The notes beneath the pieces are model-generated. The model had not been told where the DNA came from and did not search any database. It saw only the letters and a list, made by a program, of their open reading frames with translations. The position numbers were made by a program, and so were the translations under genes. A DNA stretch of 49,714 nt from an uncultured Solibacteraceae bacterium. GTDB taxonomy: Bacteria > Acidobacteriota > Terriglobia > Bryobacterales > Bryobacteraceae. The stretch spans positions 13,609 to 63,322 of the forward strand of contig CAYMHP010000001.1 of assembly GCA_964390225.1 (NCBI GenBank), written 5' to 3'. Below, one piece after another: positions 833 through 27,882 of the stretch (its first letter is position 1; the number at the start of each line of letters is the position of its first letter).

Positions 833-2089
833 ATGCAGCCGCAGGCTCCCGGAATTGTCGGTAAATCTCTATCGCGGCAGAGCTGGGTGGCTTTGCTGGC
901 CTCTTTCACCATCCTGACGGTTGCATTCGCTTTCGGATTATTTTCGCTGCCGGCGTTTTACCCTCCGCTGGTAAAGGCATTCCACTGGAACCGGGCGACG
1001 GTCGCCGCGGGCGGCTCGATTGTCCTCTTTCTGATCGGGGTGCTCTCGCCGCCGGTCGGCTGGCTCGTGGATAAGTACTCGCCGAAAGCGGTGCTGCTGG
1101 GCGGCATGGTCGCGGTGGCTGCCGCGCTCGCGTTGTTGTCCACGACGAAATCGCTCGGACAGTACTATGCATTCTGCGTGTTGCTGGGGATTGGAACGTG
1201 CGCCGTTTCGATCATGCCGAATTCCCTGTTGATCGGGCCCTGGTTTTCCCGCGGCCGCGGCATTGCGGTAGGCTTCATTAACGCGGGCATCGGGTTGGGC
1301 GGGTACATCGCGCCGCGGCTTGCGACCGCGAAGATCGAGGCCGCCGGCTTTGCGTACGCGTTTCTGTTTCTCTCGTTCTGTCTGGCGATCCCATTCGCGC
1401 TAACCCTGATCGGAGTAAGGGGTGGAAGTTCTTCGAGCCGCGCCACGCGGCACTCGGCGTCAGCGCTGCGCGCCCCCACCGCTGGTGAACTCATGCGGAT
1501 GCCGATGTATTGGATCTTTGGAATAGGCCTGTTCTTCTCGGCGCACGCCATGCTTGCCGTGCAGCAGCACCTGATTCTCTACATGACCGGCCAGGGCGTT
1601 TCCGCCGGACGCGCGGCCGCCGCGTTGAGCACCGCTCTCGGGGTCAGCGCGCTGGGCAAGGTCCTCAGCGGCGCGATTGCCGATCGCTTCTCCGCCCGGC
1701 TCGCCATGATGCTGAGCGTGTTATGTGTCGGTTTGGGGATCGCCACGCTACTTTCGATTCCGGCGGGCTCCGACTGGATCTATCTCTTCGAGGCGCTGTT
1801 TGGACTCGGCTACGGCGGCATTTTCAATGCTTCGCCGACCATCATCTTTGAATATTTCGGGACGGAACGCGTCGGTACCTCGCTCGGCCTTCTGTACATC
1901 TTTTTCGGATTAGGGACGGCGAGCGGCGGCCTGCTGGCGGGCTATATATTCGACCAAACGCATCGTTACTCGGTCCCATTTACTGTGGACCTGACGCTTT
2001 CGTGCGTGGCGCTGCTGCTATTATTGGTGAGCGGCCGTCAAACCCGGCGCGTCTCGGTGGAAGCCAAGCCTGCCCTCTCCACCCCATGA
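833..2089 (+). CDS. MFS transporter
   Basis: 418-aa ORF with an ATG start. About 12 hydrophobic segments in a 6+6 arrangement around a central loop. Gly-rich MFS-style loops (GWLVDKYSPK). It sits 25 nt upstream of the LeuD-like operon on the same strand. Confidence 0.8.
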   Translation: MQPQAPGIVGKSLSRQSWVALLASFTILTVAFAFGLFSLPAFYPPLVKAFHWNRATVAAGGSIVLFLIGVLSPPVGWLVDKYSPKAVLLGGMVAVAAALALLSTTKSLGQYYAFCVLLGIGTCAVSIMPNSLLIGPWFSRGRGIAVGFINAGIGLGGYIAPRLATAKIEAAGFAYAFLFLSFCLAIPFALTLIGVRGGSSSSRATRHSASALRAPTAGELMRMPMYWIFGIGLFFSAHAMLAVQQHLILYMTGQGVSAGRAAAALSTALGVSALGKVLSGAIADRFSARLAMMLSVLCVGLGIATLLSIPAGSDWIYLFEALFGLGYGGIFNASPTIIFEYFGTERVGTSLGLLYIFFGLGTASGGLLAGYIFDQTHRYSVPFTVDLTLSCVALLLLLVSGRQTRRVSVEAKPALSTP

Positions 2090-2114
2090 CGGGGCAGCGG
2101 CGAGCAGCCTGATC

Positions 2115-2642
2115 ATGTCAGACAATCTGGTGTTTGAAGGAAATTGCTGGAAGTTCGGTCACAATATCCCGACGGACGCGATCACGCCCACCAAGATCAC
2201 GCTCGCCGGATTCAGCGAAATGGCCAGGCACGTTTTGGAAACGCTCAACCCCGATTTCCCCAAGCAGGTGCAGAAGGGCGACATCCTGATCGCGGGCCGC
2301 AATTTCGGCTGTTCTTCGGGACGCGCAATTGCGCCGAAGGCTCTTAAGGCGACCGGGATCAGCGCCATCGTTACGGAATTGTTCGCACGCACGTTCTACC
2401 GCAACGGGCATGAGATCGGTTTGCCGCTGCTCGAAGTCCCGGGGGTGCATGAGCTGGTGGAAACTGGAGATCGCGTTCGGGTCGATATCGGGCGCGGGTT
2501 GGTTGAGAACCTTTCCTCCGGCAAGTCTCTTCGCGGCAACCCGCCACCCCCATTTCTTCTCGAGATGGTGCGCGCCGGCGGCCTCATTCCTTTTTTGAAA
2601 TCCGGATCGCAATTCTTCGCGGAGCACGGCGTACTGCGATGA
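2115..2642 (+). CDS. aconitase-family small subunit (LeuD-like swivel domain), divergent
   Basis: 175 aa. It carries the LeuD hallmark GRNFGCSSGR...ARTFYRNGHEIGLPLLE (compare GRNFGCGSARE...ARTFYRNAINDGLPIVE in the canonical LeuD at 7067..7564). The substrate-specificity loop reads KITLA instead of RYLIY. Its stop overlaps the next start (ATGA). Confidence 0.8.
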   Translation: MSDNLVFEGNCWKFGHNIPTDAITPTKITLAGFSEMARHVLETLNPDFPKQVQKGDILIAGRNFGCSSGRAIAPKALKATGISAIVTELFARTFYRNGHEIGLPLLEVPGVHELVETGDRVRVDIGRGLVENLSSGKSLRGNPPPPFLLEMVRAGGLIPFLKSGSQFFAEHGVLR

Positions 2643-3715
2643 CGCTCTTGCTGAACAACCAGGAGGTCGAGCAGGCGCTCACGCCCGAAGACGCCATCAC
2701 GGCGACGGAGAGCATCTACCGTGAACTGGCCGAGGGCACAGCCGTCAACCGGCCGCGCAGCCAGACCTACATGCCGGTGGAATCGAAGGAGCACCCTGGC
2801 TTCCGCTATCGATTCAAATCGCAGGAAGGCAGCGGCGCTTCCTGCGGTGTTTGGGCGTTGCGCATCACTTCCGATATGGCGGGCTTCTCTTACACCGCCG
2901 GAGTGAAGCGCCGCCGTATTCTGCCGGTCGCCACGGGCAACCGGTATTGCGGGCTCGTGATCCTGTTCGACATCGAAAAAATCGAGCCGATCGCGATCAT
3001 GCCCGATGGCGTCATTCAGAAGGTTCGCGTGGCCGCATTGAGCACCGTCGGGGCCAAGTACCTCGCGCCCGCAAATCCCAGGGTGCTGGGTCTGTTTGGC
3101 AGCGGGTGGCAGGCGAGCGCGCATATCGAGTTTCTGTGCAGCCACTTTCGTTTCGAAAAGGTGAAGGTTTACAGCCCCAACCAGGAGCATTGCCGCGAAT
3201 TTTGCCGCGAGATGACTGCCAAACTCGGACAGTGCATCGAGCCCGTGGACTCACCGGAGAAAGCCGTTCAGGGCAGCGATTTCGTGCAGACCGCCACGGC
3301 CGCATGGGACCCGGTTTTCGACGGGCGTCTCGTGGAAAAGGGAATGTACATCTGCTCCATCGGCGGCGCCGACGCCAGCAACAAACGCCGCGAGATCGAC
3401 GACGAGACCATACGCCGCGCTGACCTGTATGTGGTCCATTCCAAGGAAGTCGCGCGGCTCGACCAATCGCCGGATATCTGGGAAGTCGCACAGAAGGGGA
3501 TCAAGAACTGGGATTCCATTCACGAAGTGCAAGATCTGATTGCGGGCAAGGCGCGGGGCCGCACACACCCGGATCAGATTACGGTGTTCAACAACAATAC
3601 GGGGGCCGGAACGCAATTTGCCGCCGTAGGCGCGGCGGTGCTGCAGCGTGCCCGGTCCATGGGATTAGGCCGGGAACTCCCGACCGAGTGGTTTCTGGAG
3701 GACGTCTCCCCGTAG
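2639..3715 (+). CDS. ornithine cyclodeaminase / mu-crystallin family NAD(P)-dependent enzyme
   Basis: 358 aa. Rossmann motif GLFGSGWQASAHIEF. Overall OCD/mu-crystallin layout. 4-nt overlap with the upstream gene. Confidence 0.8.
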   Translation: MTLLLNNQEVEQALTPEDAITATESIYRELAEGTAVNRPRSQTYMPVESKEHPGFRYRFKSQEGSGASCGVWALRITSDMAGFSYTAGVKRRRILPVATGNRYCGLVILFDIEKIEPIAIMPDGVIQKVRVAALSTVGAKYLAPANPRVLGLFGSGWQASAHIEFLCSHFRFEKVKVYSPNQEHCREFCREMTAKLGQCIEPVDSPEKAVQGSDFVQTATAAWDPVFDGRLVEKGMYICSIGGADASNKRREIDDETIRRADLYVVHSKEVARLDQSPDIWEVAQKGIKNWDSIHEVQDLIAGKARGRTHPDQITVFNNNTGAGTQFAAVGAAVLQRARSMGLGRELPTEWFLEDVSP

Positions 3716-3752
3716 ACGCGCGTTTGGACCGCGCTAAAATCCCGCAACCGAC

Positions 3753-4850
3753 ATGCTGAACGAAGATCGCCAGGCGCAGTTAACGAACCTCATGGCCGAG
3801 CGCGGCTGGGACCTGCTGCTTCTCTACGGTCACGGCTGGCGCAAGGATTTCTTTCGCTGCCTGGTCAACCTGAATTTCTCCGGTCCGCACGGGCTGGCCG
3901 CGCTCTTCCGCTCTGGCGAGGTGCACGCGATTGTTTCCGATCCCTGGGATGGCGAATCGCTTTCAGCGGCGCTCAATGGACGAGTCGTCATCGCCCGCAA
4001 TTTCCCCGAATCATTGAGCCGGTTCGTCGCGGGTGCGCGCGTCGGCGAAGTCGCCATCGCTGGCCTCGAGTTGATGGAGGTCCGCTTCGTTCAGGCCGTC
4101 GGAGAGGCGCTGAAAAAGCCGCCGGTCTCGGCGACCGCGGATCTGGAGGAACTGCGGCGGGTGAAGACAGCTCGCGAAATCGCGCTCCTCGAAAGAGCCG
4201 CCGAGCTTTCTGACCGCGGCTACCAGCACTTCGCCGAGGTCATCGAGCAGGGCATGACCGAATACGAGCTGGTGGCGGAGGTAGAGGCGTTTTTAAAGTG
4301 CAGCGGCGCGGAGGACAATTTCATGCTGATCGCCTCCGGCGGCACGGAGGTCACCGGCATGAAGCCGCCCACCGGCCGTAAATTTCGGGAAGGCGATTCG
4401 GTCACCACCGAACTCACTCCGCAGGTGGATGGCTACTACGCCCAGATCTGCCGGACGCTGGTGCTGGGAGAGCCGAACGCGAAGCAGTGCGAGGCTTTCG
4501 GGATTTTTGCAGAAGCACAGAAGGCAGCTGAGGATCTGCTCCGGCCCGGCGTCAACGTCGCCGATGTGGCCCGAGTGCAGAACGATGTCTTCCGCAAGTA
4601 CGGCTACGGCGAATATACAGGCCCGAAATATACACGCGTCCGCGGCCACAATCTCGGCCTGCACCCGGACGAGAATCCTTACGTTCTCGAAGACGTGGAT
4701 TATGTTGTGAAGAGAGACATGGTGCTGATCGCGCATCCGAACACGTACCTGCCGCTGTCGGGTTACATGGTCTTCGGCGACACGTTGCGGGTGACGGCGG
4801 ATGGCTGCGCGCCGCTGAACAAAACGGAAAGGAAACTCTTCCAGAAATGA
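3753..4850 (+). CDS. M24-family (pita-bread fold; creatinase/prolidase/ectoine-hydrolase-like) protein with non-canonical metal site
   Basis: 365 aa. A creatinase_N-like N-domain is followed by the M24 motifs GDSVTTELTP..GYYAQICRT, GHNLGLHPDENP, IAHPNTY and FGDTLRVT. At the five canonical D,D,H,E,E ligand positions it reads E,Q,H,H,G. Confidence 0.75.
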   Translation: MLNEDRQAQLTNLMAERGWDLLLLYGHGWRKDFFRCLVNLNFSGPHGLAALFRSGEVHAIVSDPWDGESLSAALNGRVVIARNFPESLSRFVAGARVGEVAIAGLELMEVRFVQAVGEALKKPPVSATADLEELRRVKTAREIALLERAAELSDRGYQHFAEVIEQGMTEYELVAEVEAFLKCSGAEDNFMLIASGGTEVTGMKPPTGRKFREGDSVTTELTPQVDGYYAQICRTLVLGEPNAKQCEAFGIFAEAQKAAEDLLRPGVNVADVARVQNDVFRKYGYGEYTGPKYTRVRGHNLGLHPDENPYVLEDVDYVVKRDMVLIAHPNTYLPLSGYMVFGDTLRVTADGCAPLNKTERKLFQK

Positions 4851-5779
4851 AACGCGGTTGGATCACGTGGGACAAAGCGGAACTGCATCCATCGGCGTTC
4901 GAATCGCGGCTGGAGATCGTCAGGAACGATCTCGTCGAACGGGACCTGCCCGCCCTCGTCGTTTACACGGATGTCTTTCGCTCGAACGAGGGCCGGTATT
5001 ATTCCAATTTCATGCCGTATTGGAACCGGGCGCTGCTCCTCATTCCGAGGGATGGGGCGCCGGTGCTCCTCTGCGGGCTTTCGCCGCGCGTGTACCCCTG
5101 GATCCGCTCCGTCACCATCCTCGAGGACATCAAGCCTTCTCCGAATCTCGCCCGCCAACTGCTGGAGGTGTGCGCGGCAAAGGGCTGGAACCGCATCGGC
5201 GTAATGGACCTGCTCCAAGTGCCATATGATCTCTACCAGCAGATCGGCGACGGATCTCTCGAATTAGTCGATGTTCCGTTCCGTGCGAAACCGGATACCT
5301 GGGAGATTTTGATGTATAAAGAGGCCGCTAGATTGGCGCGCGAAGGGCTTACGGAAGATCTGGCGGGCGGCATCGGAATGCTCGATCACGAATTCACGGG
5401 CCGCCTGGAGCGGAAATTCCGGAGCGCCGGAGCGGAAGACCTGGTCATCTTGTTAACGAATGGGCAGACGCCGCCGGTTCCTGCTCGCGGGGTAACGCTC
5501 GGCGAAAATTTCTCGGTGGCGCTGGCGCTCGAGTATCGGGGGCACTGGGCGAAAGTGGCGAGATCCGCGAACGGGGACTCGGCCCCGCCGGTTCCCCTCG
5601 AACCGGCGCCGAGGGACGCAAAAGTCTACGTGGAATCGTTATTGGGCTCCTACCCGTACGAACCCGGCGATCAGATGCAGGAGATCGTTGCGATTCGCAC
5701 CGAGGTGGAACGAGGAGGCCGCAGGTTGTTCCACGGAGATACCTACCTGCGCAGGGGTGGGAAGGTGGACCTGCTGTGA
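4847..5779 (+). CDS. divergent creatinase/M24-like protein (probably non-catalytic or non-metallo)
   Basis: 310 aa. The start overlaps the upstream stop (ATGA). The N-terminal half resembles the creatinase/aminopeptidase-P N-domain. The C-terminal half is short and I cannot find the M24 ligand motifs in it. Confidence 0.55.
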   Translation: MKRGWITWDKAELHPSAFESRLEIVRNDLVERDLPALVVYTDVFRSNEGRYYSNFMPYWNRALLLIPRDGAPVLLCGLSPRVYPWIRSVTILEDIKPSPNLARQLLEVCAAKGWNRIGVMDLLQVPYDLYQQIGDGSLELVDVPFRAKPDTWEILMYKEAARLAREGLTEDLAGGIGMLDHEFTGRLERKFRSAGAEDLVILLTNGQTPPVPARGVTLGENFSVALALEYRGHWAKVARSANGDSAPPVPLEPAPRDAKVYVESLLGSYPYEPGDQMQEIVAIRTEVERGGRRLFHGDTYLRRGGKVDLL

Positions 5780-7035
5780 ACATGATCGAGAAAATTCTCG
5801 CCAAGGCAAGCGGGAATCGGGAGGTCCGCCCGGGCGACGTGGTGGTGGCGAAGGTCGATCTGATGGTGATGCACGACCTCAGCTCGAACTTCGTGATGAA
5901 AGTCTTCGAGAACGAAATGGAGGCCGCTACCATCGCGGACCCCTCGCGCATCGCATTCGTCTTCGATCACAACTTCGCGCCCGCCACGCAACAGGCCGCC
6001 GAGGCCTTGGCCGCCGTCCGCAAGTTTGCCGCCAAACACCGCATTCGCAACGTCTTTGATTGCGGCAGCGGGAGCGTGCATCATGTGATTGTCGAAAGCG
6101 GCCTGTGGGCGCCCGGACAAGTGATCATCGGCTGCGATTCCCACACGCCGATTTATGGAGCGCTCGGTGTGTTTGCCACCGGCGTCGGCAACAACTCCAT
6201 GGCCGCACTCGGCTTTCAGCATGGCCTCGGTTGGGTCAAGGTTCCGGAGACCTTTCAGGTTTTCTTCCACGGCGAAACGAAGGGGTGCGTGACCCCGCGG
6301 GACGTCGCTCAGTACCTGGTGGGGCGACTGGGTGAGGATGGCGCGGTCTACAAGGCGATTGAGTATGCCGGCCCGTATATGGAGTCGCTGGCCATCGAGG
6401 ATCGCATGCTCTTTCCCTTAATGTCGATTGATGTCGGCGCGAAATGTGGTTTCGTGAATCCCGACCAAAAGACCCTCGCGTTTGCGAAATCATATTCCAA
6501 GGCAAAGTACTTCGACATGCCGGCGAACGATTCCGGTACGGCATACACGGACGTTCTCGACATCGACGTAAGCAAGCTGGGGCCGCAGGTTGCGTGCCCG
6601 CCGACAGTGGGCAACGTGAAGCCAGTGGAAGAGGTCGCTGGGGTTGCGATCAACATCGCCGAGGTGGGAGGCAGCACCGGAGGGCGTCTCTCCGACATTC
6701 GCCGCCTCGCCGAGTTCTTCCGAAACCGGCGCGTTCATCCCGATGTACGTCTCCAGGTGGTGCCAGCAACACGCGGCATTTTCCGTGAGGCCCTCCGAGA
6801 GGGCCTCTTCGATGTCCTGCACGATGCCGGCGCGAACATCTTCCCGGCGAGCGCGGGCTCCAACCAGGCCTTCAACATGGGCGCCATGGCGGAAGAGGAG
6901 GCGATGATCTCGAACCAGGCGCGCAATTTCCCAGGCCGCAATGGGCATCCGAAAGCGCGGCATTATCTCGGTTCGACGCTCACGGTGGCAGCTTCGGCGC
7001 TGCACGGCCGCATCACCGACCCACGCGCGGTCTAG
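5776..7035 (+). CDS. aconitase-family large subunit (LeuC-like) lacking the three Fe-S cysteine ligands
   Basis: 419 aa, colinear with the LeuC at 7566..8849 (MIEKILAK, GCDSHTPIYGALG, ARNFPGRNG, ITDPR). GSC becomes GGS (Ser300, nt 6673-6675). GCGAC becomes ASAGS (Ser359 and Ser362, nt 6850-6852 and 6859-6861). GTG start overlaps the upstream stop (GTGA). Alternative ATG at 5782. Confidence 0.8.
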   Translation: MNMIEKILAKASGNREVRPGDVVVAKVDLMVMHDLSSNFVMKVFENEMEAATIADPSRIAFVFDHNFAPATQQAAEALAAVRKFAAKHRIRNVFDCGSGSVHHVIVESGLWAPGQVIIGCDSHTPIYGALGVFATGVGNNSMAALGFQHGLGWVKVPETFQVFFHGETKGCVTPRDVAQYLVGRLGEDGAVYKAIEYAGPYMESLAIEDRMLFPLMSIDVGAKCGFVNPDQKTLAFAKSYSKAKYFDMPANDSGTAYTDVLDIDVSKLGPQVACPPTVGNVKPVEEVAGVAINIAEVGGSTGGRLSDIRRLAEFFRNRRVHPDVRLQVVPATRGIFREALREGLFDVLHDAGANIFPASAGSNQAFNMGAMAEEEAMISNQARNFPGRNGHPKARHYLGSTLTVAASALHGRITDPRAV

Positions 7036-7062
7036 TGGGGCAGGCCGTTGGCCTGCCCCACT
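7034..7062. terminator. bidirectional intrinsic-terminator-like hairpin between convergent operons
   Basis: Perfect 13-bp inverted repeat AGTGGGGCAGGCC-gtt-GGCCTGCCCCACT. It starts inside the stop codon of the LeuC-like gene and ends 5 nt before the leuD stop. Confidence 0.7.
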
Positions 7063-7066
7063 AAGG

Positions 7067-7564
7067 TTACGTCTGCTGCAATTGCGATTTCAGGTATTCT
7101 GCCAGGCCGCCGAGTTCTAGGATTTTCCGCACCGACTCCGGCATCTTGGGGAACGGATATTCCTTTCCCCCGTGCTCGATGAGCCCCGACGCCAGGTCGA
7201 TGCGGATCTCGTCGCCTTCCTGAACGGCCTCGTAAATCGCAGGGCATTCGACAATGGGCAGCCCGTCGTTGATGGCATTCCGATAAAACGTGCGCGCGAA
7301 CGATGCCGCGACCACGGCTTTGATGCCGAGGCCCTGAATCGCCGTCGCCGCCTGTTCGCGCGCGCTGCCGCATCCGAAATTCCGTCCGGCGACGAAGATC
7401 TCAAAATTGCGCAGCTTCGCGGGGAAGCCCTCGCCAAGCATCTCGAACGCGTGCTGGCCGAGCCGTTCGGGGTCGATGTAGATGAGATAACGGCCCGGAA
7501 TGATGATATCGGAATTGATGTTGTCGCCGAATTTGTAGATCCGGCCCTGGATCGTCGATTCCAT
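7067..7564 (-). CDS. leuD: 3-isopropylmalate dehydratase small subunit (archaeal-type LeuD)
   Basis: 165 aa. GRNFGCGSAREQA and ARTFYRNAINDGLP motifs. The specificity loop GRYLIY is of the YLVY type reported for isopropylmalate isomerase, not the YLRT type of homoaconitase. It lies 1 nt downstream of leuC. Confidence 0.8.
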   Translation of the reverse strand: MESTIQGRIYKFGDNINSDIIIPGRYLIYIDPERLGQHAFEMLGEGFPAKLRNFEIFVAGRNFGCGSAREQAATAIQGLGIKAVVAASFARTFYRNAINDGLPIVECPAIYEAVQEGDEIRIDLASGLIEHGGKEYPFPKMPESVRKILELGGLAEYLKSQLQQT

Positions 7565-7565
7565 G

Positions 7566-8825
7566 CTAGTTCTTCAGGAACTCCCTGGGGTCGGTAATCA
7601 CGCCCTCAATCGCCGACGCCGCGAGCGTGGCGGGACTCGAAAGGTAAATTTGCGACTTGTTGCTTCCCATGCGTCCCAGGAAGTTCCGGTTCGCCGTGGA
7701 GAGGCAGACCTCTCCATCGGCCAGCATCCCGCCATCCCCGGCGCACGCGCCGCAGCCGGGGTTGGTGACCATGCCGCCGCTCTCGAGAAGCGTCTGCAGC
7801 ACTCCGGAGTTCATGGCCTGCAGCATGATCTGCTTCGAACCCGGCGTGATGATCAACCGCACGCCGGGATGGACGCGGCGGCCTTTGAGAATCCGGGCGG
7901 CAATCGCCAGGTCCTCGTACTTGGCGTTGGCGCACGAACCGAGGAATGCCTGGTCGATGTGCGTTCCGGCGACCTCGCCGATCGGTTTCGTGTTCTCGAC
8001 TTCATGCGGGCAGGCGACCATCGGCTGCAGTTCCGCCAGGTCCACCTCGATGCGCCGTTCGTAGACGGCGTCGGCATCCGCATAGACGGGGTAATAGGCT
8101 TTCGAGGTCTCCAGCCGCCCCTTCAGATACTCCCCGGTCTTCTCGTCCGGGGGCACAAACACGCACTTAACCCCCATCTCCATCGCGAGATTCGCCATGG
8201 TCATCCGCTCCGAGATACTCAGCGCCGGCATGGCCGAGCCGTAGAACTCCACGGATTTGTAGCCGCATCCATCCGCGCCCAGCTTCCCGATCAAGTGGAG
8301 CATCAGGTCCTTCGAATAAACGCCGTCCCCGAACTGCCCGTTCAATACGATCGCGAAGCTCTCCGGAACCTTCATCCAGAGCTTTCCGGTGATCCACACG
8401 GAGGTCACTTCCGTGTAGCCGATACCCGTGCCCAGCGCGCCGAGGCTGCCGTAGATCGTGCAATGCGAGTCGGTGCCGACGATCAGATCGCCGGGCGCGA
8501 CGTGCCCGTGCTCCATCAGCACCAGGTGCGCAATCCCGGCGTCAACGTCATAAAATTTGCGCACGCCGTGCTGGCGCGCGAAATGGCGCGATGTCTGCTG
8601 ATCGGCCGCGTACTTTTCGGTCTTCGCTGGAGAGATGTGATCCAACACGATGGCGAGACGCTCGGGATCGTACAGCTTGGTTGCGCCCACCCGCGACATC
8701 ACGTTCACGGAACGCCACGTAGCGGTGTGGCTCATGACCAGGTCGGGGTAGGCCTCGACAATTTCTCCCGGCTGCACCCTGTCCCGGCCGGATTTCGCCG
8801 AAAGAATCTTCTCGGCTATGGTCAT
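7566..8825 (-). CDS. leuC: 3-isopropylmalate dehydratase large subunit (archaeal-type LeuC)
   Basis: The track ORF runs to the TTG at 8849. I prefer the ATG at 8825, which gives MTIAEKILSAK, the usual LeuC N-terminus. Motifs GTDSHC, FLGSCANAKYEDL and NPGCGACAGDGG retain all three cluster cysteines. The start is uncertain by 24 nt. Confidence 0.85.
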   Translation of the reverse strand: MTIAEKILSAKSGRDRVQPGEIVEAYPDLVMSHTATWRSVNVMSRVGATKLYDPERLAIVLDHISPAKTEKYAADQQTSRHFARQHGVRKFYDVDAGIAHLVLMEHGHVAPGDLIVGTDSHCTIYGSLGALGTGIGYTEVTSVWITGKLWMKVPESFAIVLNGQFGDGVYSKDLMLHLIGKLGADGCGYKSVEFYGSAMPALSISERMTMANLAMEMGVKCVFVPPDEKTGEYLKGRLETSKAYYPVYADADAVYERRIEVDLAELQPMVACPHEVENTKPIGEVAGTHIDQAFLGSCANAKYEDLAIAARILKGRRVHPGVRLIITPGSKQIMLQAMNSGVLQTLLESGGMVTNPGCGACAGDGGMLADGEVCLSTANRNFLGRMGSNKSQIYLSSPATLAASAIEGVITDPREFLKN

Positions 8826-8923
8826 TCCCACGTGGAAAACCCCTCCCAAATCGCTCTGACGCGACGTATTCAGTGTATCAAGGCCTCTGGATCGTCTATA
8901 TTGAATGGATTACGGAGCCAGCT

Positions 8924-12010: not shown

Positions 12011-13555
12011 ATGACACCGGTAAAGACGGGCACGCCGCATCGCTGGTGGGCGCTCGATCGCGGCGACTTCGATGTGACGTTGGCGCAGGTGGGATTCAAC
12101 CTGGCGCAGATGGTGATCCCCGTATTTCTGCTGGCGCCCGTCGGGATTCCGATTGTCTTCAGCGTCACGCACCTGTTGCCCGGCTACGCGCTGGGATTCC
12201 TGGTCGGCTCGCTGGGGTTGGTCCGCCTGGCGGTGGCGCTCGCGCGCCGCGAAGGGCGGCAGAACGTTACCGCACACGTGTACGGTAACAACGTGCCCGC
12301 AATCCTTTCCTACACGCTTTCGATCATGCTGCCGGTGTATTTGCAGACGCATGACGCGAACCGCGCCTGGGCGATTGGCGCGGCGGCGGTGGCTTGGACG
12401 GGCGTAATTAAGCTGGCCGCCGCGCCGTTTGCGCGAAGGTTCCGGCTGCTGATTCCCGGGCCGGCTTCGATGACCGTTTTCGGCGCCGCAATGTACAGCT
12501 ATCTCGCGCTGGTGCTGCTCCAGCGCGTCTTCGACCAGCCCATCGTCGGCCTTGTCGCGCTGGCCATCATCGCAACGACGGTGCTCTCCAACGTGCCGAT
12601 TACGCGCTGGCGCATTCCTCCGTTTCTGGTCGCCTGGATCGTGCCCTTGATCGTGGGCGTGGCCATCGGCTACAGCCGCCCGCTGTGGCAGGGCATTTCA
12701 TTGGGCCTGCCGCTTGCCGTTCCCCCGCAGCCCGTGCGCGCCATGGTGCTGGCGTTGCCCTATCTTTCCGTCATCGTTCCCATGGCCATCTATCACGTCC
12801 TTCAGGACATCGCCTCGGTGGCCGGCGCCAGCTCGGTAGGAGACGATTACGATGTCCGTAAAATCCTCGCCTGGGATGGCCTCGGAACGCTGGTTTGCGG
12901 CATCGCTGGCAGCGTGATCGCGCCGGTCATCTACGCCATGCTTCCGCCATACAAGGCCATCGGCGCCCGCATCGCGTATGCACTGTGGACCCCGGTTCTG
13001 TTTCTCGTCATCGTGATGAGTGGACTAACGGTGTTCATCGCCCAACTCTTCCCCTGGCCGATTCTCGCCGCCATCATCGCGTATGTGTCGGTCGGAGTGG
13101 GCACCGCCACCTTGCGCCGGGTCGATGCCAGGTACACGAGCGTGGTGTTGCTCGGCTTTGTGCTGCCGGCCGGCGCGGTGGTCGCCTCGGCAGTGAATTC
13201 GGCATTGCCAGCTCTGCGGCTATCTGCCGCAAATCCGGGCGTGCAGGCGGCACTGAACCGCTCGATTTACTGGTCCTCCATTCAGGGACTCGGCAATGGA
13301 TTCCTCTTCCTCGTGTTGGTGGTGGCCTCGCTGATTACGGAGATGATCGATCGCCGGTTCACTCGCGCGGCCGCCTGGTGCCTGACGGCGGCCGTGTTCT
13401 CCTGGTTCGGGCTGATGCACTCCGCCCTGATTCGGTGGGCCGCGCAGCCCGCGTATGCCGCGGGGTGGCTCGCCGCGGCGGCAATTGTCTATTCTGCCCA
13501 GTGGTGGAGAGGCGACGCGCCGGATCCGTTGCCGAACAAACCCACGACCCGGTAG
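12011..13555 (+). CDS. multi-pass membrane permease (family not resolved)
   Basis: About 514 aa and almost entirely hydrophobic, with at least 12 helices. It starts 13 nt after the decarboxylase-like gene. Placed in the aromatic cluster by context only. Confidence 0.6.
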   Translation: MTPVKTGTPHRWWALDRGDFDVTLAQVGFNLAQMVIPVFLLAPVGIPIVFSVTHLLPGYALGFLVGSLGLVRLAVALARREGRQNVTAHVYGNNVPAILSYTLSIMLPVYLQTHDANRAWAIGAAAVAWTGVIKLAAAPFARRFRLLIPGPASMTVFGAAMYSYLALVLLQRVFDQPIVGLVALAIIATTVLSNVPITRWRIPPFLVAWIVPLIVGVAIGYSRPLWQGISLGLPLAVPPQPVRAMVLALPYLSVIVPMAIYHVLQDIASVAGASSVGDDYDVRKILAWDGLGTLVCGIAGSVIAPVIYAMLPPYKAIGARIAYALWTPVLFLVIVMSGLTVFIAQLFPWPILAAIIAYVSVGVGTATLRRVDARYTSVVLLGFVLPAGAVVASAVNSALPALRLSAANPGVQAALNRSIYWSSIQGLGNGFLFLVLVVASLITEMIDRRFTRAAAWCLTAAVFSWFGLMHSALIRWAAQPAYAAGWLAAAAIVYSAQWWRGDAPDPLPNKPTTR

Positions 13556-13571
13556 GTTAGAATCTCCGTTT

Positions 13572-14534
13572 ATGCCTAGCGAACCCATTATGGATCTGGC
13601 CCACCTCGGCCACTTGGAACTGCTCACACCGAAACCGGAAGAGAGCGTCAAATTCTTTGTCAATATCATGGGAATGACGGAAACAGGCCGGGAGGGCGAC
13701 TCAGTCTATTTGCATGCCTATGATGATTACGAGCGTCACTCCCTGAAGCTCACCGCCTCCAAGTTGCCGGGCCTCGGTCACGTAGCGTTCCGCGCGCGCA
13801 GTCCCCAGGCGCTGGAGCGGCGCGTGGCGGCACTGAAGGGTTCCGGCTTCGATATAGGATGGACGGACGGCGACCTGGCGCATGGCCCGGCGTTCGTTTG
13901 CTGCGATCCCGACGGTCATAAGATCGAGCTCTACTACGAAACGCAGTGGTACCAGGCACCGCCCGAGTTGCGACCCGCCCTGAAGAACCAGGCGCAGCGT
14001 TTCCCGGCCCGCGGGGTGAACGTGCGCCGGCTCGATCACTGGAATGGCCTGGCCGTGGATATCGAAGCGAATCGCCAGTTCTTCGAGAACTACCTCGGTT
14101 TCCGGCTTACCGAGCAGATCGTCCTCAACGACGGCAGCGAGGCCGCGATGTGGATGACCTGCACGAATAAGAGCTACGATTTTGCGTACACGCGCGACCA
14201 CACGGGCACCCGCGGCCGCTTTCACCACGTTACGTATGCCGTGAACAGCCGGGAAGAAGTATTGCTGGCGGCCGATATCTTCCTGGAAAACGGCATCCAC
14301 ATCGAAACGGGGCCGCACAAGCACGCCATTCAGCAGACCTTCTTCCTTTACGTCTACGAGCCCGGCGGAAACCGGGTCGAGGTCGCCAACGCCGGGGCGC
14401 GTTTGATCCTCGCCCCCGACTGGAAGCCGATCCGGTGGACCGAGGAGGAGCGTAAGAAGGGTCAGGCCTGGGGCCTCAAGACGATCGAATCCTTCCACAC
14501 CTACGGCACGCCACCAGTCGAAGTGAAGCACTAG
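13572..14534 (+). CDS. catechol 2,3-dioxygenase-type extradiol dioxygenase (two-domain VOC)
   Basis: The internal ATG at 13572 (M40 of the track ORF) gives MPSEPIMDLAHLGHLELL. Two VOC modules, with HVAF, HHVTY and YVYEPGGNRVE motifs typical of type I extradiol dioxygenases. Confidence 0.85.
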   Translation: MPSEPIMDLAHLGHLELLTPKPEESVKFFVNIMGMTETGREGDSVYLHAYDDYERHSLKLTASKLPGLGHVAFRARSPQALERRVAALKGSGFDIGWTDGDLAHGPAFVCCDPDGHKIELYYETQWYQAPPELRPALKNQAQRFPARGVNVRRLDHWNGLAVDIEANRQFFENYLGFRLTEQIVLNDGSEAAMWMTCTNKSYDFAYTRDHTGTRGRFHHVTYAVNSREEVLLAADIFLENGIHIETGPHKHAIQQTFFLYVYEPGGNRVEVANAGARLILAPDWKPIRWTEEERKKGQAWGLKTIESFHTYGTPPVEVKH

Positions 14535-15248
14535 ATGGCCAAACAGAACCTGCTTCTGCTTCCCGGGTTGCTTTGTGATCAGGAAGTCTGGCAGAGCCAG
14601 ATCGACGCACTGGCGGACGTCGCCGTGTGTACCTGCGCCGACTACGACCTGCTCGATACCCTTCCGGCGATGGCTGAGGCGGCCCTGCGAAAAGCGCCTC
14701 ATCGCTTTGCCGTCGCGGGGCATTCGATGGGCGGCCGTATCGCACTGGAGGTTTACCGCTTCGCGCCGGAGCGCGTTACCGGGCTGGCACTCTTCGATAC
14801 CGGCTACCAGGCGCGGCCCGCCGGTCCCGCAGGCGAGGAGGAAGAACGGGGCAGGCGCGAGTTGCTGGCGATTGCAAGATCCAGAGGCATGCGACCGATG
14901 GCGCAGAAGTGGGTTCAGGGAATGGTCGCTCCGCGCCGCCTCGCCGACGATGCGTTCCTCGAATCCATCATTCGCATGTTCGAGCGGAAGACGCCGGAAA
15001 TTTATGAAGCGCAGATCGGCGCGTTGCTGGCGCGCCCGGACGCTACTTCACTGCTGGGAGAGATTCGCTGCCCCACGCTGCTGTTGTGCGGCAGCGAAGA
15101 CGTGTGGAGCCCGCCTGCGCGCCACGCCGAAATGGCCGCGTTAATCGCCGGCAGCACGCTGGCGGTCATCTCCGATTCGGGCCACATGACCACGATGGAA
15201 CAGCCTGTGGCGGTAGCGCAGGCGATGCGGGACTGGTTGGAAAAGTAG
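14535..15248 (+). CDS. alpha/beta-fold hydrolase (meta-cleavage-product hydrolase candidate)
   Basis: 237 aa. The ATG immediately follows the dioxygenase stop. Nucleophile elbow GHSMGG. C-terminal SGHM with the catalytic His. Confidence 0.8.
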   Translation: MAKQNLLLLPGLLCDQEVWQSQIDALADVAVCTCADYDLLDTLPAMAEAALRKAPHRFAVAGHSMGGRIALEVYRFAPERVTGLALFDTGYQARPAGPAGEEEERGRRELLAIARSRGMRPMAQKWVQGMVAPRRLADDAFLESIIRMFERKTPEIYEAQIGALLARPDATSLLGEIRCPTLLLCGSEDVWSPPARHAEMAALIAGSTLAVISDSGHMTTMEQPVAVAQAMRDWLEK

Positions 15249-15374: not shown

Positions 15375-16850
<1,476 letters not shown>

Positions 16851-24222: not shown

Positions 24223-25950
24223 ATGGCCGAAACGGTGAACGGCGGTAATCAGAGCCCGGCGCAACCGCCAAAAGAAATGTCGATGGAAATCCGGCTGCTG
24301 CTGGCCTTCCTGCTCATGGGCGCGGTAATGTTCGTCACGCCCTATATCTTCAAGACGCCTCCTCCCGCGCCCGCAAAGAAAACGGCTGCGCAGACGGCGC
24401 AGACCCCTAACCAGAAGGCCCCCGTGGAGCAGGCTTCCGCCGTCGCGCCCGCCCAGGCGTCACCAGCCGCCCCATCCGGCCCCGTGACTCCCCAGCAGCC
24501 GCAGCCGCCGGTGATCATCGACACGGACGTGTTTCGCGTGGCCTTCAGCAACCAGGGCGCAACAGTGCGTAGCTGGCTGCTCAAGAAACACAAAGGAAAT
24601 GATAATAAGCCGCTGGAGTTGATCAACACGGCGGCGAATCTCGATTATCCTTTCGCGCTCTACTTCCCGGGCGAGAAACCCACCGCGAACGTGAACACCA
24701 GCTATTACACCGTGCACGGCGACCCGGATGGACTGGGCGCCACGTTCGAGTTTTCCGATGGGCGGACATCCGTGCGCAAGGTCTTTCGGTTCCAGAAGAA
24801 CAGCTATCAGTCGCACGTCACGACCGAGGTGAGCGTTAACGGCAAGCCGATTCCGAATGCAATCGAGTGGCGCGGCGGATTCGGCGATCTGACCATGGCC
24901 AACCCGGCCAACGCCGAGCGTGCTCTTTACTTCGATGCCGCGAACAATAAGCTGGAGGAGCAAACCGCGAAGGCCGCCAAGAACGGGCCGGTTTCCGCGA
25001 GCGGCAATTATTCGTTTGCCGGCATGGCCGACCAGTACTTTGCGGCAGTCTTCCTGCCGGAAGGGACCACCACAATGCAAGTGGTTACTTTCGGCGACAC
25101 CGTTCGTACCCCTCTCGAAGAGAAGCCCGCCGACTTTGCCGGCGTCGCTGTCTCGGACGGAGATCGGAACCGCTTCTCCTTGTTTATCGGCCCGAAAGAC
25201 CTGGACCTGCTGCGGCGCGTGAACCCGAAGGCGGTCGAGGTGGTGAATTTCGGATTCTGGGGCTTCCTCGCCAAGCCGCTGTTCCTGATGGTGAACTGGT
25301 TCAACGACGCGTTTGTACACAGCTTCGGCTGGTCCATCATCCTGGTCACCATCATCATCAACTTCATCCTGTTCCCGCTGAAGCTGTCGAACATGAAGTC
25401 GATGCGCAAAATGCAGGCGCTGCAGCCGCAGATCGCCGCCATCAACGAGAGATACAAGAACGTCGGCCTGCGCGATCCCAAGAAAGCGGAGCAGAACCAG
25501 GAGGTCATGGACCTCTACAAGAAGCATGGCGTCAACCCAATGGGTGGTTGCATGCCGATGGCGTTGCAAATTCCGATCCTGTTCGCTTTTTACCGGGTGT
25601 TCACCGTGTCGGTGGAGATGCGTGGCGCCAACTGGCTGTGGGTTACGGATCTCTCGCAACCGGAACACCTGCCCATCAAGCTTCTGCCGATCGCGATGAT
25701 TATCAGCCAGTTCGTGATGCAGAAGATGACGCCCACGGGGAATGTCGATCCCAGCCAGCAGCGCATGATGATGTTCATGCCGCTGGTTTTCGGCTTCATG
25801 TTCTACAATTTGCCCAGCGGCCTGGTGCTATACTACTTGACCAGCAATCTTGTTGCGATGGGGCAGCAGTGGTTCTTCAACCACACCGAGACGGCGCAGG
25901 AGGCGGTTCGCTCGGTGCAGCCCCCCAAAAAAAAGAACGGCAGGAAATAG
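24223..25950 (+). CDS. yidC: membrane protein insertase YidC
   Basis: 575 aa. N-terminal TM helix, a large periplasmic domain, and a C-terminal 60-kDa_IMP core (MRKMQALQPQIAAINERYK, GCMPMALQIPILFAFY, LPSGLVLYYLTSN). Canonical position after rnpA-yidD. Confidence 0.95.
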   Translation: MAETVNGGNQSPAQPPKEMSMEIRLLLAFLLMGAVMFVTPYIFKTPPPAPAKKTAAQTAQTPNQKAPVEQASAVAPAQASPAAPSGPVTPQQPQPPVIIDTDVFRVAFSNQGATVRSWLLKKHKGNDNKPLELINTAANLDYPFALYFPGEKPTANVNTSYYTVHGDPDGLGATFEFSDGRTSVRKVFRFQKNSYQSHVTTEVSVNGKPIPNAIEWRGGFGDLTMANPANAERALYFDAANNKLEEQTAKAAKNGPVSASGNYSFAGMADQYFAAVFLPEGTTTMQVVTFGDTVRTPLEEKPADFAGVAVSDGDRNRFSLFIGPKDLDLLRRVNPKAVEVVNFGFWGFLAKPLFLMVNWFNDAFVHSFGWSIILVTIIINFILFPLKLSNMKSMRKMQALQPQIAAINERYKNVGLRDPKKAEQNQEVMDLYKKHGVNPMGGCMPMALQIPILFAFYRVFTVSVEMRGANWLWVTDLSQPEHLPIKLLPIAMIISQFVMQKMTPTGNVDPSQQRMMMFMPLVFGFMFYNLPSGLVLYYLTSNLVAMGQQWFFNHTETAQEAVRSVQPPKKKNGRK

Positions 25951-25953
25951 CCT

Positions 25954-26526
25954 GTGAGTGAACGAAAGTACTCCGCGGCCTCGATCGGTTCCCGGGTAGA
26001 CGGTTTTCTCAATACGATTCTGCGGAGTGGTGGATTTCACGTGAATTACGAGATCCAGGATGCCGAGCCGGCCGCCGACGATTTCGAGACTCCGGATGTC
26101 GTAATCAAGTTCACCGGCGCCGACGTCGACCTGCTGCTGTCCAATAAGGCGGAACTGCTTCTGGCGCTCGAGCAAGTCACCATGGAAATGCTGCGCGTCC
26201 CCTCCGAGGATCACTCGCGCATTTCCTTTGATGCGAACGATTACCGCCTGCTGCGGATCGAGGAGTTGCGCCTCAGCGCCACCACGGCAGCGGAAAAAGT
26301 GAAGCGCACCGGAGTTCCCTTCCGCTTCAACCCCATGAACAGCCGCGAGCGCCGCGTGATTCACCTCGCTTTGCGGAATGAGTCCGCGGTGCGCAGCGAA
26401 AGCATTGGAACCGGTCCGACGCGCCAGGTGGTGGTCTACCCCGCCGGCATGGCCAGCCTGCCGGAACCTCCCCGGGCTCCCGAGCCGCGGCGCGGTGGTC
26501 CGCGCTCCCGTAGCGCCCGGCGCTAG
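25954..26526 (+). CDS. jag: Jag/KhpB-like RNA-binding protein (KH + R3H domains)
   Basis: 190 aa. GTG start 3 nt after the yidC stop. R3H motif region NSRERRVIHLAL. Conserved position between yidC and mnmE. Confidence 0.8.
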   Translation: MSERKYSAASIGSRVDGFLNTILRSGGFHVNYEIQDAEPAADDFETPDVVIKFTGADVDLLLSNKAELLLALEQVTMEMLRVPSEDHSRISFDANDYRLLRIEELRLSATTAAEKVKRTGVPFRFNPMNSRERRVIHLALRNESAVRSESIGTGPTRQVVVYPAGMASLPEPPRAPEPRRGGPRSRSARR

Positions 26527-26529
26527 GCG

Positions 26530-27882
26530 TTGTCCGTTTCCGATACGATTGTCGCCATTTCCACGCCGCCCGGCCGCGGCGGCCTCGGGGTGATCCGCAT
26601 CTCCGGCGATAGGGCCAGAGCGATCGCCGTTTCGATGCTCCACGTCGCGGGCTGCGGTGATTGGGAACCGCGGCGGGCGCGCCTGGCGGAAATGGTGGAC
26701 CGCGACGGCCACGCGGTCGATCAAGTAGTTGCCACATGGTTCGCCGCGCCGCATTCGTACACCGGTGAGGATGTGGTGGAGTTATCGTGCCACGGTTCTC
26801 CTGTCGTGCTTCGGTTCGCTATCGAGCGGGCGCTCGAGGCCGGAGCCCGGTTGGCCGAGCCCGGGGAATTCACGTTGCGCGCTTTTCTCAACGGGCGCAT
26901 CGATCTGCCGCAGGCCGAGGCCGTCCGAGACCTGATCGAAGCCACCACGTTATACCAGGCGCGCGTCGCGGCCCAGCAGGTCTCCGGATCGGTCTCGCGG
27001 CGGCTTGCGCCATTAAAGGAACAGTTGCTGGAGCTGATCGCGCTGATCGAAGCGGGCATCGATTTCGCCGAAGATGATGTGAGCGTGGCGCCGCCGGCCG
27101 AGATTCTCCGCCGGCTCACACCCCTGATCGATTCTGTCCGCCAATTTGCCGCCAGCTTTCAATATGGCGGCCTCGTCCGTACGGGCCTCACGCTGGCGAT
27201 TGTGGGCCGCCCCAACGTAGGCAAGAGCAGCCTCTTCAATGCGCTTCTCGAGCAGGATCGCGCCATTGTCACCGAGATCCCGGGCACGACGCGCGACCTG
27301 GTCTCCGAAACGGCAGCGATCGGCGGGATCCCCGTGAAACTGTTCGACACGGCGGGAATCCGCGAATCGGCCGAGCTTGTAGAAACGTTGGGCATCGAGC
27401 GCAGCTACCAGGCAATGGCCGACGCCGACTTGACCCTGGTGGTCCTGGACCTGTCACAGCCCACGGCTGCGAACGATCGCGAACTGATCGAGCGCGCCGC
27501 GCGACAGGGCCGCTGGCTGCTGGTGGGGAACAAATCGGATTTGCCGCGCGCTGCGAAGCTGTCGGCCGAGCCGCTCGCCGTTTCCGCGAAAACAGGGGAC
27601 GGCATCGCGCAATTGCGAGAGGCCATTCTCGAGGCTGTAGCTCCCAAAGGCGCGTGGGAGGAGGAATCGGGGTTTCTCACCAGCCTGCGCCACGAGCAAT
27701 TGCTTCGGGAATCGCTCGCGTACCTGGAGAAGGCCCGAACCGCCGTAGAATCGAACATTCCCCACGAAATGATGCTGCTCGACTTATACTCCGCGTTGCG
27801 TCCAATCGACGCGATCACAGGAGCCACGACGGCGGACGACATTTTGAACCGTATCTTCTCCACGTTCTGCATAGGGAAGTAA
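26530..27882 (+). CDS. mnmE: tRNA uridine-5-carboxymethylaminomethyl modification GTPase MnmE
   Basis: TTG start. [23 protein letters not shown]-terminus. G-domain [20 protein letters not shown] and NKSDL. C-terminal FCIGK. Confidence 0.95.

Follow-up and report, generated by a model that had tools for sequence, protein, structure and literature searches.

Several described systems share parts with the six-gene operon analysed here, which lies at positions 833-7035 of the forward strand of a 49,714-nt stretch of DNA (hereafter, the window) from an uncultured Solibacteraceae bacterium of the Acidobacteriota (contig CAYMHP010000001.1). The operon encodes a major facilitator superfamily (MFS) transporter, a LeuD-like small subunit (LeuDl), a protein of the ornithine cyclodeaminase (OCD)/mu-crystallin family, two proteins of the M24 creatinase/prolidase fold (M24a and M24b) and a LeuC-like large subunit (LeuCl), and it faces a second, convergent LeuD/LeuC pair (LeuD2 and LeuC2). 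The two-subunit LeuCD and HacAB enzymes of Methanocaldococcus jannaschii (4KP1/4NQY, 4KP2, 3VBA and 2PKP) have the aconitase fold as well as acid/base and Arg residues in common with both pairs. LeuC2, in which the Cys triad is intact, and LeuD2, which has the RYLIY loop, look like genuine members of this isopropylmalate isomerase (IPMI) type, whereas LeuCl lacks the cluster ligands, the LeuDl loop is not conserved, and the genes for LeuDl and LeuCl stand at opposite ends of the operon with no leuA/leuB context.

Other precedents concern the combination of enzymes rather than the aconitase fold itself. Nicotinate fermentation in Eubacterium barkeri proceeds through ring reduction, hydrolysis of the C-N ring bond and double-bond isomerisation, with an enamidase, a B12 mutase and Mii among its early enzymes, before dimethylmaleate hydratase (DmdAB), an Fe-S enzyme of the LeuCD family, performs hydration at a late step. 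The logical order of steps is the one we propose below, and TIGR02087 bears the name LeuD/DmdB family; the early enzymes, however, are unrelated to the OCD, M24a/M24b and Fe-S-free LeuCD proteins found here. In the cis-3-hydroxyproline route, AcnX operates together with a pyrroline-2-carboxylate reductase (PMC5144071), a precedent for the pairing of an aconitase-superfamily dehydratase and an imino-acid reductase in the conversion of a cyclic amino acid, and the best PDB relative of the OCD protein is likewise a pyrroline-2-carboxylate reductase. By contrast, AcnX is a separate subfamily (PMC8184944) with an Fe-S site of its own, and its clusters contain neither an M24 pair nor a second LeuCD; AcnX identity was rejected because both pairs match the classical PF00330/PF00694 (Aconitase, Aconitase_C) domains only. 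Catabolism of ectoine and hydroxyectoine (EutC, DoeA/EutD; PMC3187862; 6TWK) resembles the present locus in the co-occurrence of an OCD-family enzyme and an M24-fold C-N hydrolase, and its dehydratase, reductase and ring-hydrolase logic would apply here too, but the transporter types differ and the M24 unit of our cluster appears heteromeric with another set of active-site residues. An Eut/Doe identity was likewise discarded, as the scores fall far short of the respective cut-offs (EutC, 92.8 versus 471.65; DoeA, 41-53 versus 575-613), and Pfam/NCBIfam scans of the larger open reading frames (ORFs) in the window and several related loci returned no DoeB, EutA, EutB or DoeCD. Finally, creatinase (1CHM, 1KP0, 7YTO), a metal-free M24 amidinohydrolase, has the same two-domain fold as the M24 pair and has also lost the dinuclear metal site, with the M24b model superposing on creatinase at TM scores of 0.71-0.74 and 13-17% sequence identity. 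Creatinase, however, is a homodimer with a different set of replacements, as opposed to two diverged paralogues, one of which lacks the catalytic half.

The operon was first recognized in an earlier note made from the sequence alone, and its six ORFs, their families and their order were reproduced by ORF listing and Pfam/NCBIfam searches. The MFS transporter (833-2089; 418 aa; PF07690, 7e-46) is the first operon gene in Acidobacteria and is followed by LeuDl (2115-2642; 175 aa; Aconitase_C, TIGR02087 [LeuD/DmdB]), the OCD protein (2639-3715; 358 aa; PF02423 [OCD_Mu_crystall], 8e-40, 137 bits), the full-length M24a (3753-4850; 365 aa; PF00557 [Peptidase_M24], 8.8e-34), the C-terminally shortened M24b (4847-5779; 310 aa) and LeuCl (5776-7035; 419 aa, GTG start; PF00330, TIGR02086/PRK00402), all on the forward strand. 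Three junctions overlap by 4 nt and read ATGA (2639-2642), ATGA (4847-4850) and GTGA (5776-5779), as the note had it.

The most unusual member of the operon is LeuCl. It belongs to the aconitase superfamily by full-length homology (PF00330, 2.8e-70; PRK00402, 421 bits against a cut-off of 385; 4NQY, E=6e-85), but alignment with LeuC2 and the M. jannaschii protein (4KP1/4NQY) shows that the GSCTNGR motif is replaced by GGSTGGR and the CxxC motif by ASAGSN, so that the three cluster-ligand positions are occupied by S300, A360 and N363. Across 70 orthologues, Ser and Asn are found at the first and third positions without exception (70/70 each), and Ala at the second in 65, the other five having Cys; hence, 65 of the 70 proteins contain none of the three cluster cysteines and the remaining five retain one. 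The only invariant cysteines of the family are C120 and C274. The cluster-contact shell is altered as well, with L215, D219 and A382 in place of aconitase Asn258, Glu262 and Asn446. By contrast, the residues equivalent to the acid/base and carboxylate-binding set of aconitase (Asp100-His101, His147, Asp165-Ser166-His167, Arg447 and Arg452) are invariant in LeuCl (D64, H65, H102, D121, S122, H123, R383 and R388), and N384 is also kept. A structural survey found Cys358, Cys421 and Cys424, along with Ser642, conserved throughout IRP, AcnA/B/D, IPMI and HACN (PMC8184944). Given the loss of the ligand cysteines, LeuCl should be unable to act as a classical aconitase-type dehydratase and, judging from these substitutions, is not a conventional hydratase or isomerase, contrary to the hydratase/isomerase step that the earlier note had assigned to it and LeuDl. 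Nevertheless, LeuCl is 65-83% identical across two phyla and is therefore under selection and functional.

An exact-sequence search with the LeuCl of the window matched no contig. When 1.84 billion representatives at the 50%-identity level were searched, the clade with the Ser/Ala/Asn signature amounted to essentially one cluster, and its sister, P0124, which is 50% identical to LeuCl, carries His, Thr and Asn at the ligand positions. At 41% identity to LeuCl or below, all but a few of 150 representatives, among the matches listed, have the three cysteines. P0124 is encoded, together with a LeuD partner, in an operon (L087, 2-6632; L numbers denote individual loci) in which this second Cys-less LeuCD follows a gene for a PrpD/cis-aconitate-decarboxylase-like protein and precedes an ABC transporter of the SBP_bac_1 type. 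The P0124 LeuCD overlaps the PrpD-like gene, and the nearest PDB relatives of that PrpD-like protein are cis-aconitate decarboxylases.

The small subunit, LeuDl, scores 152.7 bits with TIGR02087 (cut-off 108.95). In 66 orthologues, C66, S68 and R70 are invariant, the latter two being the equivalents of aconitase Ser642 and Arg644, and Ala takes the place of the Glu of the GSSRE motif. The earlier note pointed to the small-subunit loop, KITLA in LeuDl versus RYLIY in LeuD2, as a mark of specificity. The difference is real, but the LeuDl loop varies among the 66 orthologues and thus provides no specificity signature, and a role as backup IPMI is therefore unlikely. That the LeuDl/LeuCl pair is not the leucine isomerase, as also proposed in the note, is borne out by the scores, which stay below the IPMI equivalogs (TIGR02083, 357.8 versus 610.65; TIGR02084, 146.9 versus 245.85).

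The reverse strand carries LeuD2 (7067-7564; 165 aa; TIGR02087, 180.8 bits) and LeuC2 (7566-8849; TIGR02086, 485.8 bits), the true start of which is likely the ATG at 8825. The Cys triad of LeuC2 is complete in 49 of 49 sequences; LeuD2 contains GCGSAREQA, and its loop, GRYLIYI, is conserved in at least 90% of 51 sequences. The RYLIY core matches RYLVY of the M. jannaschii isopropylmalate/citramalate isomerase (3VBA, also the best PDB match of LeuD2, at 2e-47), not PYLRT of homoaconitase (2PKP). LeuC2 and LeuD2 nevertheless remain below the equivalog cut-offs (TIGR02083, 455.5 versus 610.65; TIGR02084, 159.4 versus 245.85), and no leuA or leuB gene is present in the window. The earlier note correctly placed a LeuD/LeuC pair here but regarded it as the canonical leucine enzyme, unrelated to the operon. 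However, 50 of 80 loci have LeuC2/LeuD2 no farther than 8 kb from the cluster, and four arrangements occur: downstream on the same strand (18 loci), downstream and convergent (13), upstream and divergent (14), and upstream on the same strand (5). In Steroidobacteraceae L057 and L060-L068, they belong to the same operon as the cluster; for instance, L057 has the co-directional order LeuDl-OCD-M24a-M24b-LeuCl-MFS-LeuC2-LeuD2 behind a divergent LysR gene, and the gap between LeuCl and LeuC2 in L060-L068 and L073 ranges from 9 to about 140 nt, being at most 18 nt in most of them. Gammaproteobacterial LeuC2 proteins are 76-80% identical to that of the window, more than M24a, M24b, LeuDl and LeuCl at the same loci, and this identity across phyla indicates co-transfer and strong constraint. 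Most likely, LeuC2/LeuD2 is the real Fe-S hydratase or isomerase of the pathway, and it may be an IPMI as well.

The 80 loci come from a scan of one genome per species, with synteny traced by tblastn, and they belong to Bryobacteraceae, Solibacteraceae and other metagenome-assembled genomes (MAGs) of Terriglobia, on the one hand, and to Steroidobacteraceae and Lysobacterales, on the other, with two cultured strains among them, Steroidobacter flavus and Peristeroidobacter soli. The order LeuDl-OCD-M24a-M24b-LeuCl is present in 54 loci, a form without OCD accounts for 9 more, and most of the rest are interrupted by contig ends. An MFS gene directly precedes LeuDl in 43 of the 80 loci. The 4-nt overlaps recur at 63 of 78 M24a/M24b junctions, 61 of 71 M24b/LeuCl junctions and 44 of 58 LeuDl/OCD junctions. 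This conservation of gene order and overlaps far exceeds chance and bears out the view of a conserved, tightly coupled, transporter-linked operon; the possibility raised in the note, that the arrangement might not be conserved elsewhere, is dismissed. Overall, the cluster is horizontally mobile and shared by soil Acidobacteriota (Bryobacterales) and Steroidobacteraceae. We found no description of the cluster, the Cys-less LeuC clade, the M24a/M24b module or either operon in the full-text literature.

The two M24 proteins had been compared in the earlier note to DoeA, creatinase and prolidase, an assignment that holds for the fold but fails for the active sites. M24a aligns with prolidase of Pyrococcus furiosus (1PV9, E=2e-35), and the five metal ligands D209, D220, H284, E313 and E327 of the latter correspond to E220, Q231, H299, H328 and G342. 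E220, H299 and H328 do not vary among 76 sequences, Q231 and G342 fall in fully conserved columns, and R295 and R297, which flank H299 in the motif RVRGH, are invariant too. These replacements predict that M24a lacks the dinuclear metal site and has a remodelled active site. M24b, a degenerate paralogue of M24a, has no Pfam or NCBIfam match, and its M24-like nature, suspected in the note, was corroborated by structure and profile comparison. The AlphaFold2 (AF2) model (pLDDT 83, pTM 0.82) resembles prolidases and creatinases in its two-domain fold (best Foldseek E 8e-15, TM 0.67-0.74, 13-17% identity), the family profile matches P. furiosus prolidase 9KW9 (E=1e-7), a structure on which we found no paper in the literature, and hhalign links M24b to M24a with 98% probability, over residues 19-242 only, with no counterpart of any ligand position. 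The strongest conservation of M24b is in the N-domain (SNFMPYWNR, 53-61; GLSPRVYPW, 77-85), and the protein is a probable non-catalytic partner that supplies this domain. The active site of each creatinase subunit is closed by the N-domain of its partner. By this analogy, M24a and M24b would form a heterodimer with one active site. More than 1120 homologues of M24b were found, almost all of them labelled 'hypothetical protein' or lacking a name.

M24a and M24b form a portable module. Some MAGs with the full cluster also carry a second copy of the pair without LeuDl, OCD and LeuCl (L012, 6829-8984; L023; L016, 1249-3330). In L012 and L023, the neighbours of this copy encode an NMT1-type binding protein and a TonB-dependent-receptor-like protein of 1261 aa, and in L016, a frameshifted M24a and M24b abut convergent LeuD2/LeuC2. 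Furthermore, Neorhizobium galegae, Chelativorans and other Alphaproteobacteria possess a strictly conserved operon consisting of HyuA-HyuB (caprolactamase-like), M24a, M24b, a PrpD-like protein, an NMT1-type ABC transporter and Amidohydro_2, preceded by a LysR gene (L090, 3077-14862, on plasmid pHAMBI540a of N. galegae HAMBI 540; also L091-L094). The Neorhizobium M24a is 43% identical to that of the window and has the same Glu/Gln/His/His/Gly set, whereas M24b is 30% identical, with the same ATGA coupling; the M24a family of these operons has more than 2380 members, and within the plasmid collection, the module was found in Neorhizobium only. The two kinds of operon thus have in common the M24a/M24b module, an Fe-S-independent polycarboxylate-enzyme fold behind it and LysR regulation, but the partners are an ATP-dependent, caprolactamase-like HyuAB, a PrpD-like protein and Amidohydro_2 instead of OCD and two LeuCD pairs. 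The MmgE/PrpD family comprises Fe-S-independent dehydratases, decarboxylases and epimerases of polycarboxylates. Accordingly, the slot after M24b is taken either by an Fe-S-free LeuC or by an Fe-S-independent member of the MmgE/PrpD family. The PrpD-like protein of L087 is not an orthologue of the one in the HyuAB operon, so that the PrpD link holds at the family level only, and the latter protein has no sequence relative in the PDB.

The OCD protein is the best-conserved member of the cluster (72-85% identity). It has the Rossmann motif GSGWQA (GxGxxA), and its K60 and R130 align with the Lys and Arg carboxylate binders of the family. The best PDB match is pyrroline-2-carboxylate reductase 6T3E, and the only full-length alignment is with BhcD, an iminosuccinate reductase (6RQA). 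However, OCD scores far below the named equivalogs (OCD, LhpI/Pyr2C reductase, EutC, BhcD, AlaDH and SbnB), for instance, 107.6 versus 500 for BhcD and 100.5 versus 322 for PRK06141, in addition to the EutC score given above. By family, it is predicted to be an NAD(P)-dependent imino-acid reductase or dehydrogenase. Ten basic residues are invariant (R38, R40, R58, K60, R75, K90, R91, R92, R93 and R130, with a KRRR run at 90-93), and this unusually basic surface suggests a polyanionic substrate. The matches of OCD to named models all concern enzymes that act on the C-N or C=N bond of alpha-amino or alpha-imino acids, and those of the M24 proteins are to peptidases or amidine hydrolases. The best NCBIfam matches of the Acidobacterial MFS, each of them far below cut-off, are L-lactate and oxalate/formate models; Steroidobacteraceae have in its place an in-operon MFS that resembles aromatic-acid/H+ symporters (PcaK), also below cut-offs.

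Taken together, these features lead us to propose, with a confidence that stops slightly short of even, that the locus is an undescribed catabolic cluster for an organic acid that is taken up by the cell, is rich in carboxylates and probably contains nitrogen, in cyclic or N-substituted form. Catabolism of an N-containing carboxylate had been put forward in the earlier note, and it still is the best family-based guess, although four parts of that interpretation had to be corrected. In this scheme, in which every reaction is our inference, the acid would enter through the MFS carrier, and the M24a/M24b heterodimer, with the N-domain of one subunit capping the catalytic domain of the other as in creatinase, would open or trim a C-N bond of amide, amidine or lactam type. 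The OCD-family enzyme would then reduce or oxidise an alpha-imino or alpha-amino polycarboxylate, and the Fe-S-free LeuCl/LeuDl would perform a cluster-independent proton transfer on a di- or tricarboxylate, either a double-bond (delta) isomerisation or an amine elimination that needs no Lewis acid, to give a product of the 2-alkylmaleate type. Finally, the [4Fe-4S] LeuC2/LeuD2 would hydrate or isomerise this product to an alkylmalate, which would join central or Leu/Ile-type metabolism. The most far-reaching form of this proposal, namely that the first Fe-S-free enzyme of the aconitase superfamily, a heteromeric non-metallo M24 hydrolase and an OCD-family reductase feed an Fe-S LeuCD in a widespread, unrecognised soil pathway, is put forward as a tentative possibility.

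Several observations weigh against the catabolic scheme. The invariant C120 of LeuCl stands next to the Asp-Ser-His triplet, and LeuCl could be non-catalytic or bind another metal centre. M24a has neither the usual catalytic metal site nor the prolidase His, and its role as a hydrolase is a prediction only. OCD is absent from 9 loci of the Steroidobacter/Lysobacterales type, where its step would be dispensable or replaced; these loci conserve a short-chain dehydrogenase/reductase (SDR) and a 302-aa cupin-like protein instead. No LeuC2/LeuD2 was detected within 8 kb in 30 of the 80 loci, some of which are short contigs. In the Pfam/NCBIfam scan, no protein of the cluster exceeded any curated equivalog cut-off. 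The catabolic direction is deduced solely from the LysR regulators and transporters, and the aromatic ring-cleavage genes in the surroundings (LigM, PcaHG-LeuC2D2 in L086 and the PcaK-like MFS) form a context without nitrogen.

Among the competing explanations, the one that fares best, albeit still an unlikely one in our estimate, regards LeuCl/LeuDl, along with M24b, as dead paralogues that serve as a scaffold, as substrate-binding or channelling subunits or as regulators of the active enzymes M24a, OCD and LeuC2/LeuD2. LeuCl is indeed devoid of the ligands of its defining cofactor, M24b is missing the whole catalytic half, and the translational coupling of M24a, M24b and LeuCl suggests assembly in stoichiometric amounts. 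Nevertheless, the invariance over two phyla of the acid/base and carboxylate residues of LeuCl and of the Ser and Arg of LeuDl is hard to fit to a pure scaffold; moreover, S300 and N363, which replace two of the ligands, do not vary either, and LeuCl is more conserved than M24b (65-83% versus 40-67%).

Somewhat less probable, and in our view rather unlikely, is a nitrogen-free variant, in which the cluster would provide an alternative lower pathway for lignin-derived aromatic acids and act on polycarboxylates produced by ring cleavage, such as 2-pyrone-4,6-dicarboxylate, 4-oxalomesaconate or 3-carboxymuconate. OCD or the SDR would then be a dehydrogenase, M24a/M24b a lactone hydrolase, LeuCl/LeuDl an Fe-S-free tautomerase or delta-isomerase (cf. 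LigU/GalD) and LeuC2/LeuD2 a hydratase (cf. LigJ/GalB). The neighbourhood offers some encouragement for this variant. On the reverse strand of the window (15375-16787) is a gene for a LigM-type, tetrahydrofolate (THF)-dependent vanillate/3-O-methylgallate O-demethylase (NF047885, 759 bits against a cut-off of 580); in Steroidobacteraceae L064-L067 (L064, 13828-15234), copies with 64-65% identity to it are found at a distance of about 2 kb from the cluster. Between the cluster and LigM, a catechol 2,3-dioxygenase (TIGR03211, 349 bits against 320) followed immediately by an alpha/beta hydrolase (13455-15248, forward strand) looks like a small meta-cleavage module. In L086 (13380-16515, reverse strand), the genes for PcaH (beta subunit, 243 aa) and PcaG (alpha subunit, 194 aa) of protocatechuate 3,4-dioxygenase, both Dioxygenase_C proteins, run in the same direction as LeuC2-LeuD2, and the gaps measure 4-58 nt, which suggests a PcaH-PcaG-LeuC2-LeuD2 operon. 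The L057 operon includes the aromatic-acid symporter/PcaK-like MFS, an HpcH-type aldolase gene is upstream in 8 Steroidobacter-type loci, and the intermediates concerned are all di- or tricarboxylates that would suit both binding by the aconitase fold and the basic OCD pocket. These aromatic-gene associations, however, are sporadic, with one to eight loci each, and the soil genomes concerned are rich in such genes anyway. Furthermore, OCD-family enzymes are not known to act on substrates without a C-N bond, nor are M24 enzymes known as lactonases; the LeuD2 loop is of the hydrophobic IPMI type (YLIY), not of the Arg-containing homoaconitase type expected for a tricarboxylate; and the Acidobacterial MFS belongs to another type than the aromatic-acid carriers.

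We consider it improbable that the cluster is biosynthetic or a stress backup, that is, that it makes a polycarboxylate amino acid (a metallophore or osmolyte) for export by the MFS or provides an isopropylmalate isomerase independent of iron and insensitive to oxidants. MFS proteins can export, the OCD-family SbnB functions in the synthesis of a metallophore precursor, and cluster-free isozymes of Fe-S dehydratases are known in the case of fumarase (PMC6831887). Against this, the divergent LysR and the importer-type carriers (PcaK-like here, the NMT1 ABC transporter in the sister operon) suggest substrate-induced catabolism, there are no genes for a ligase, a synthetase independent of nonribosomal peptide synthetases (NRPS) or an aminotransferase, and leuA/leuB were not found nearby. 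The backup-IPMI reading was rejected because the variable LeuDl loop is unlike YL[IV]Y and the equivalog scores are too low. The weakest alternative, which we regard as very improbable and as largely refuted by the sequence, is the literal model of the earlier note, a conventional Fe-S LeuDl/LeuCl hydratase/isomerase beside an unrelated housekeeping leuCD; it can point to family membership at the Pfam and subfamily levels, to the IPMI-type loop of LeuD2 and to the 30 loci without nearby LeuC2D2, but it founders on the missing cluster cysteines of the LeuCl orthologues and on a LeuC2D2 pair that sits inside the Steroidobacteraceae operon, is 76-80% identical between phyla and misses the LeuC/LeuD equivalog cut-offs.

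The convergent stop codons of LeuCl and LeuD2 are separated by 31 nt (7036-7066), which consist entirely of a hairpin with a perfect 12-bp stem (GTGGGGCAGGCC gtt GGCCTGCCCCAC), as read directly from the sequence; it has no T-run, was missed by a terminator scan that depends on one, and is likely a bidirectional terminator. Promoter and terminator scans inside the operon gave background-level signals and nothing usable, and with Rfam, neither the window nor any of five related loci showed a riboswitch or other RNA that would name a ligand. The GC content is uniform over the cluster and its flanks (~0.60-0.63). At the start of the window, on the reverse strand (1-744), is a gene for a secreted protein of ~250 aa that has no Pfam/NCBIfam match but a clear signal peptide; the ORF start listed at 912 makes it too long, and the likely start is the GTG at 744 behind a GGAG motif. 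Paralogues of this protein, 31-47% identical, occur in one or two copies per locus near the cluster in ~13 Acidobacterial loci (L001, L012-L014, L017-L020, L023, L026, L033, L078 and L081). Farther away (24223-27882, forward strand), yidC and mnmE are found close together, an arrangement often located near the chromosomal origin, and downstream of them are two-component sensor genes and genes for M16/M13 peptidases. In two related loci (L081, 2049-5998; L083, 14290-20688), a module beside the cluster, on one flank or the other, encodes a 470-aa SAM-methyltransferase-like protein without annotation, Meth_synt_2 and MTHFR-DUF5981, joined in L083 by FTHFS and FTCD_C. This C1 module is probably methionine/C1 housekeeping, and a demethylation step deduced from the THF/C1 genes (Meth_synt_2, MTHFR, FTHFS and FTCD_C) was dropped because they are present in 2-3 loci only.

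All the folds encoded in the cluster were already known; what is new is a cofactor-free variant of the aconitase fold, a heteromeric, remodelled M24 unit and the conserved combination of the two with the other members. In textbook accounts of the aconitase superfamily, the [4Fe-4S] cluster is indispensable and its ligands are universally conserved; a cluster-less clade that keeps the rest of the active site would show that the fold has been repurposed for cofactor-free chemistry. If the most far-reaching form of the proposal is correct, LeuCl/LeuDl uses the retained Ser/His/Asp machinery for proton transfer on a polycarboxylate, by delta-isomerisation or C-N elimination, and the substrate of the cluster is a polycarboxylate, either heterocyclic or N-substituted, that possibly comes from plants, lignin or humus. 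The M24a/M24b pair would be a second case of a rebuilt active site, in a heteromer of enzyme and pseudo-enzyme, and the module occurs in thousands of metagenomic proteins that have no assigned function. With S. flavus and P. soli as cultured hosts, the question is open to experiment. Bryobacterales and Steroidobacteraceae are abundant and poorly understood soil bacteria, and the identity of the substrate would give both of them a function in carbon or nitrogen cycling.

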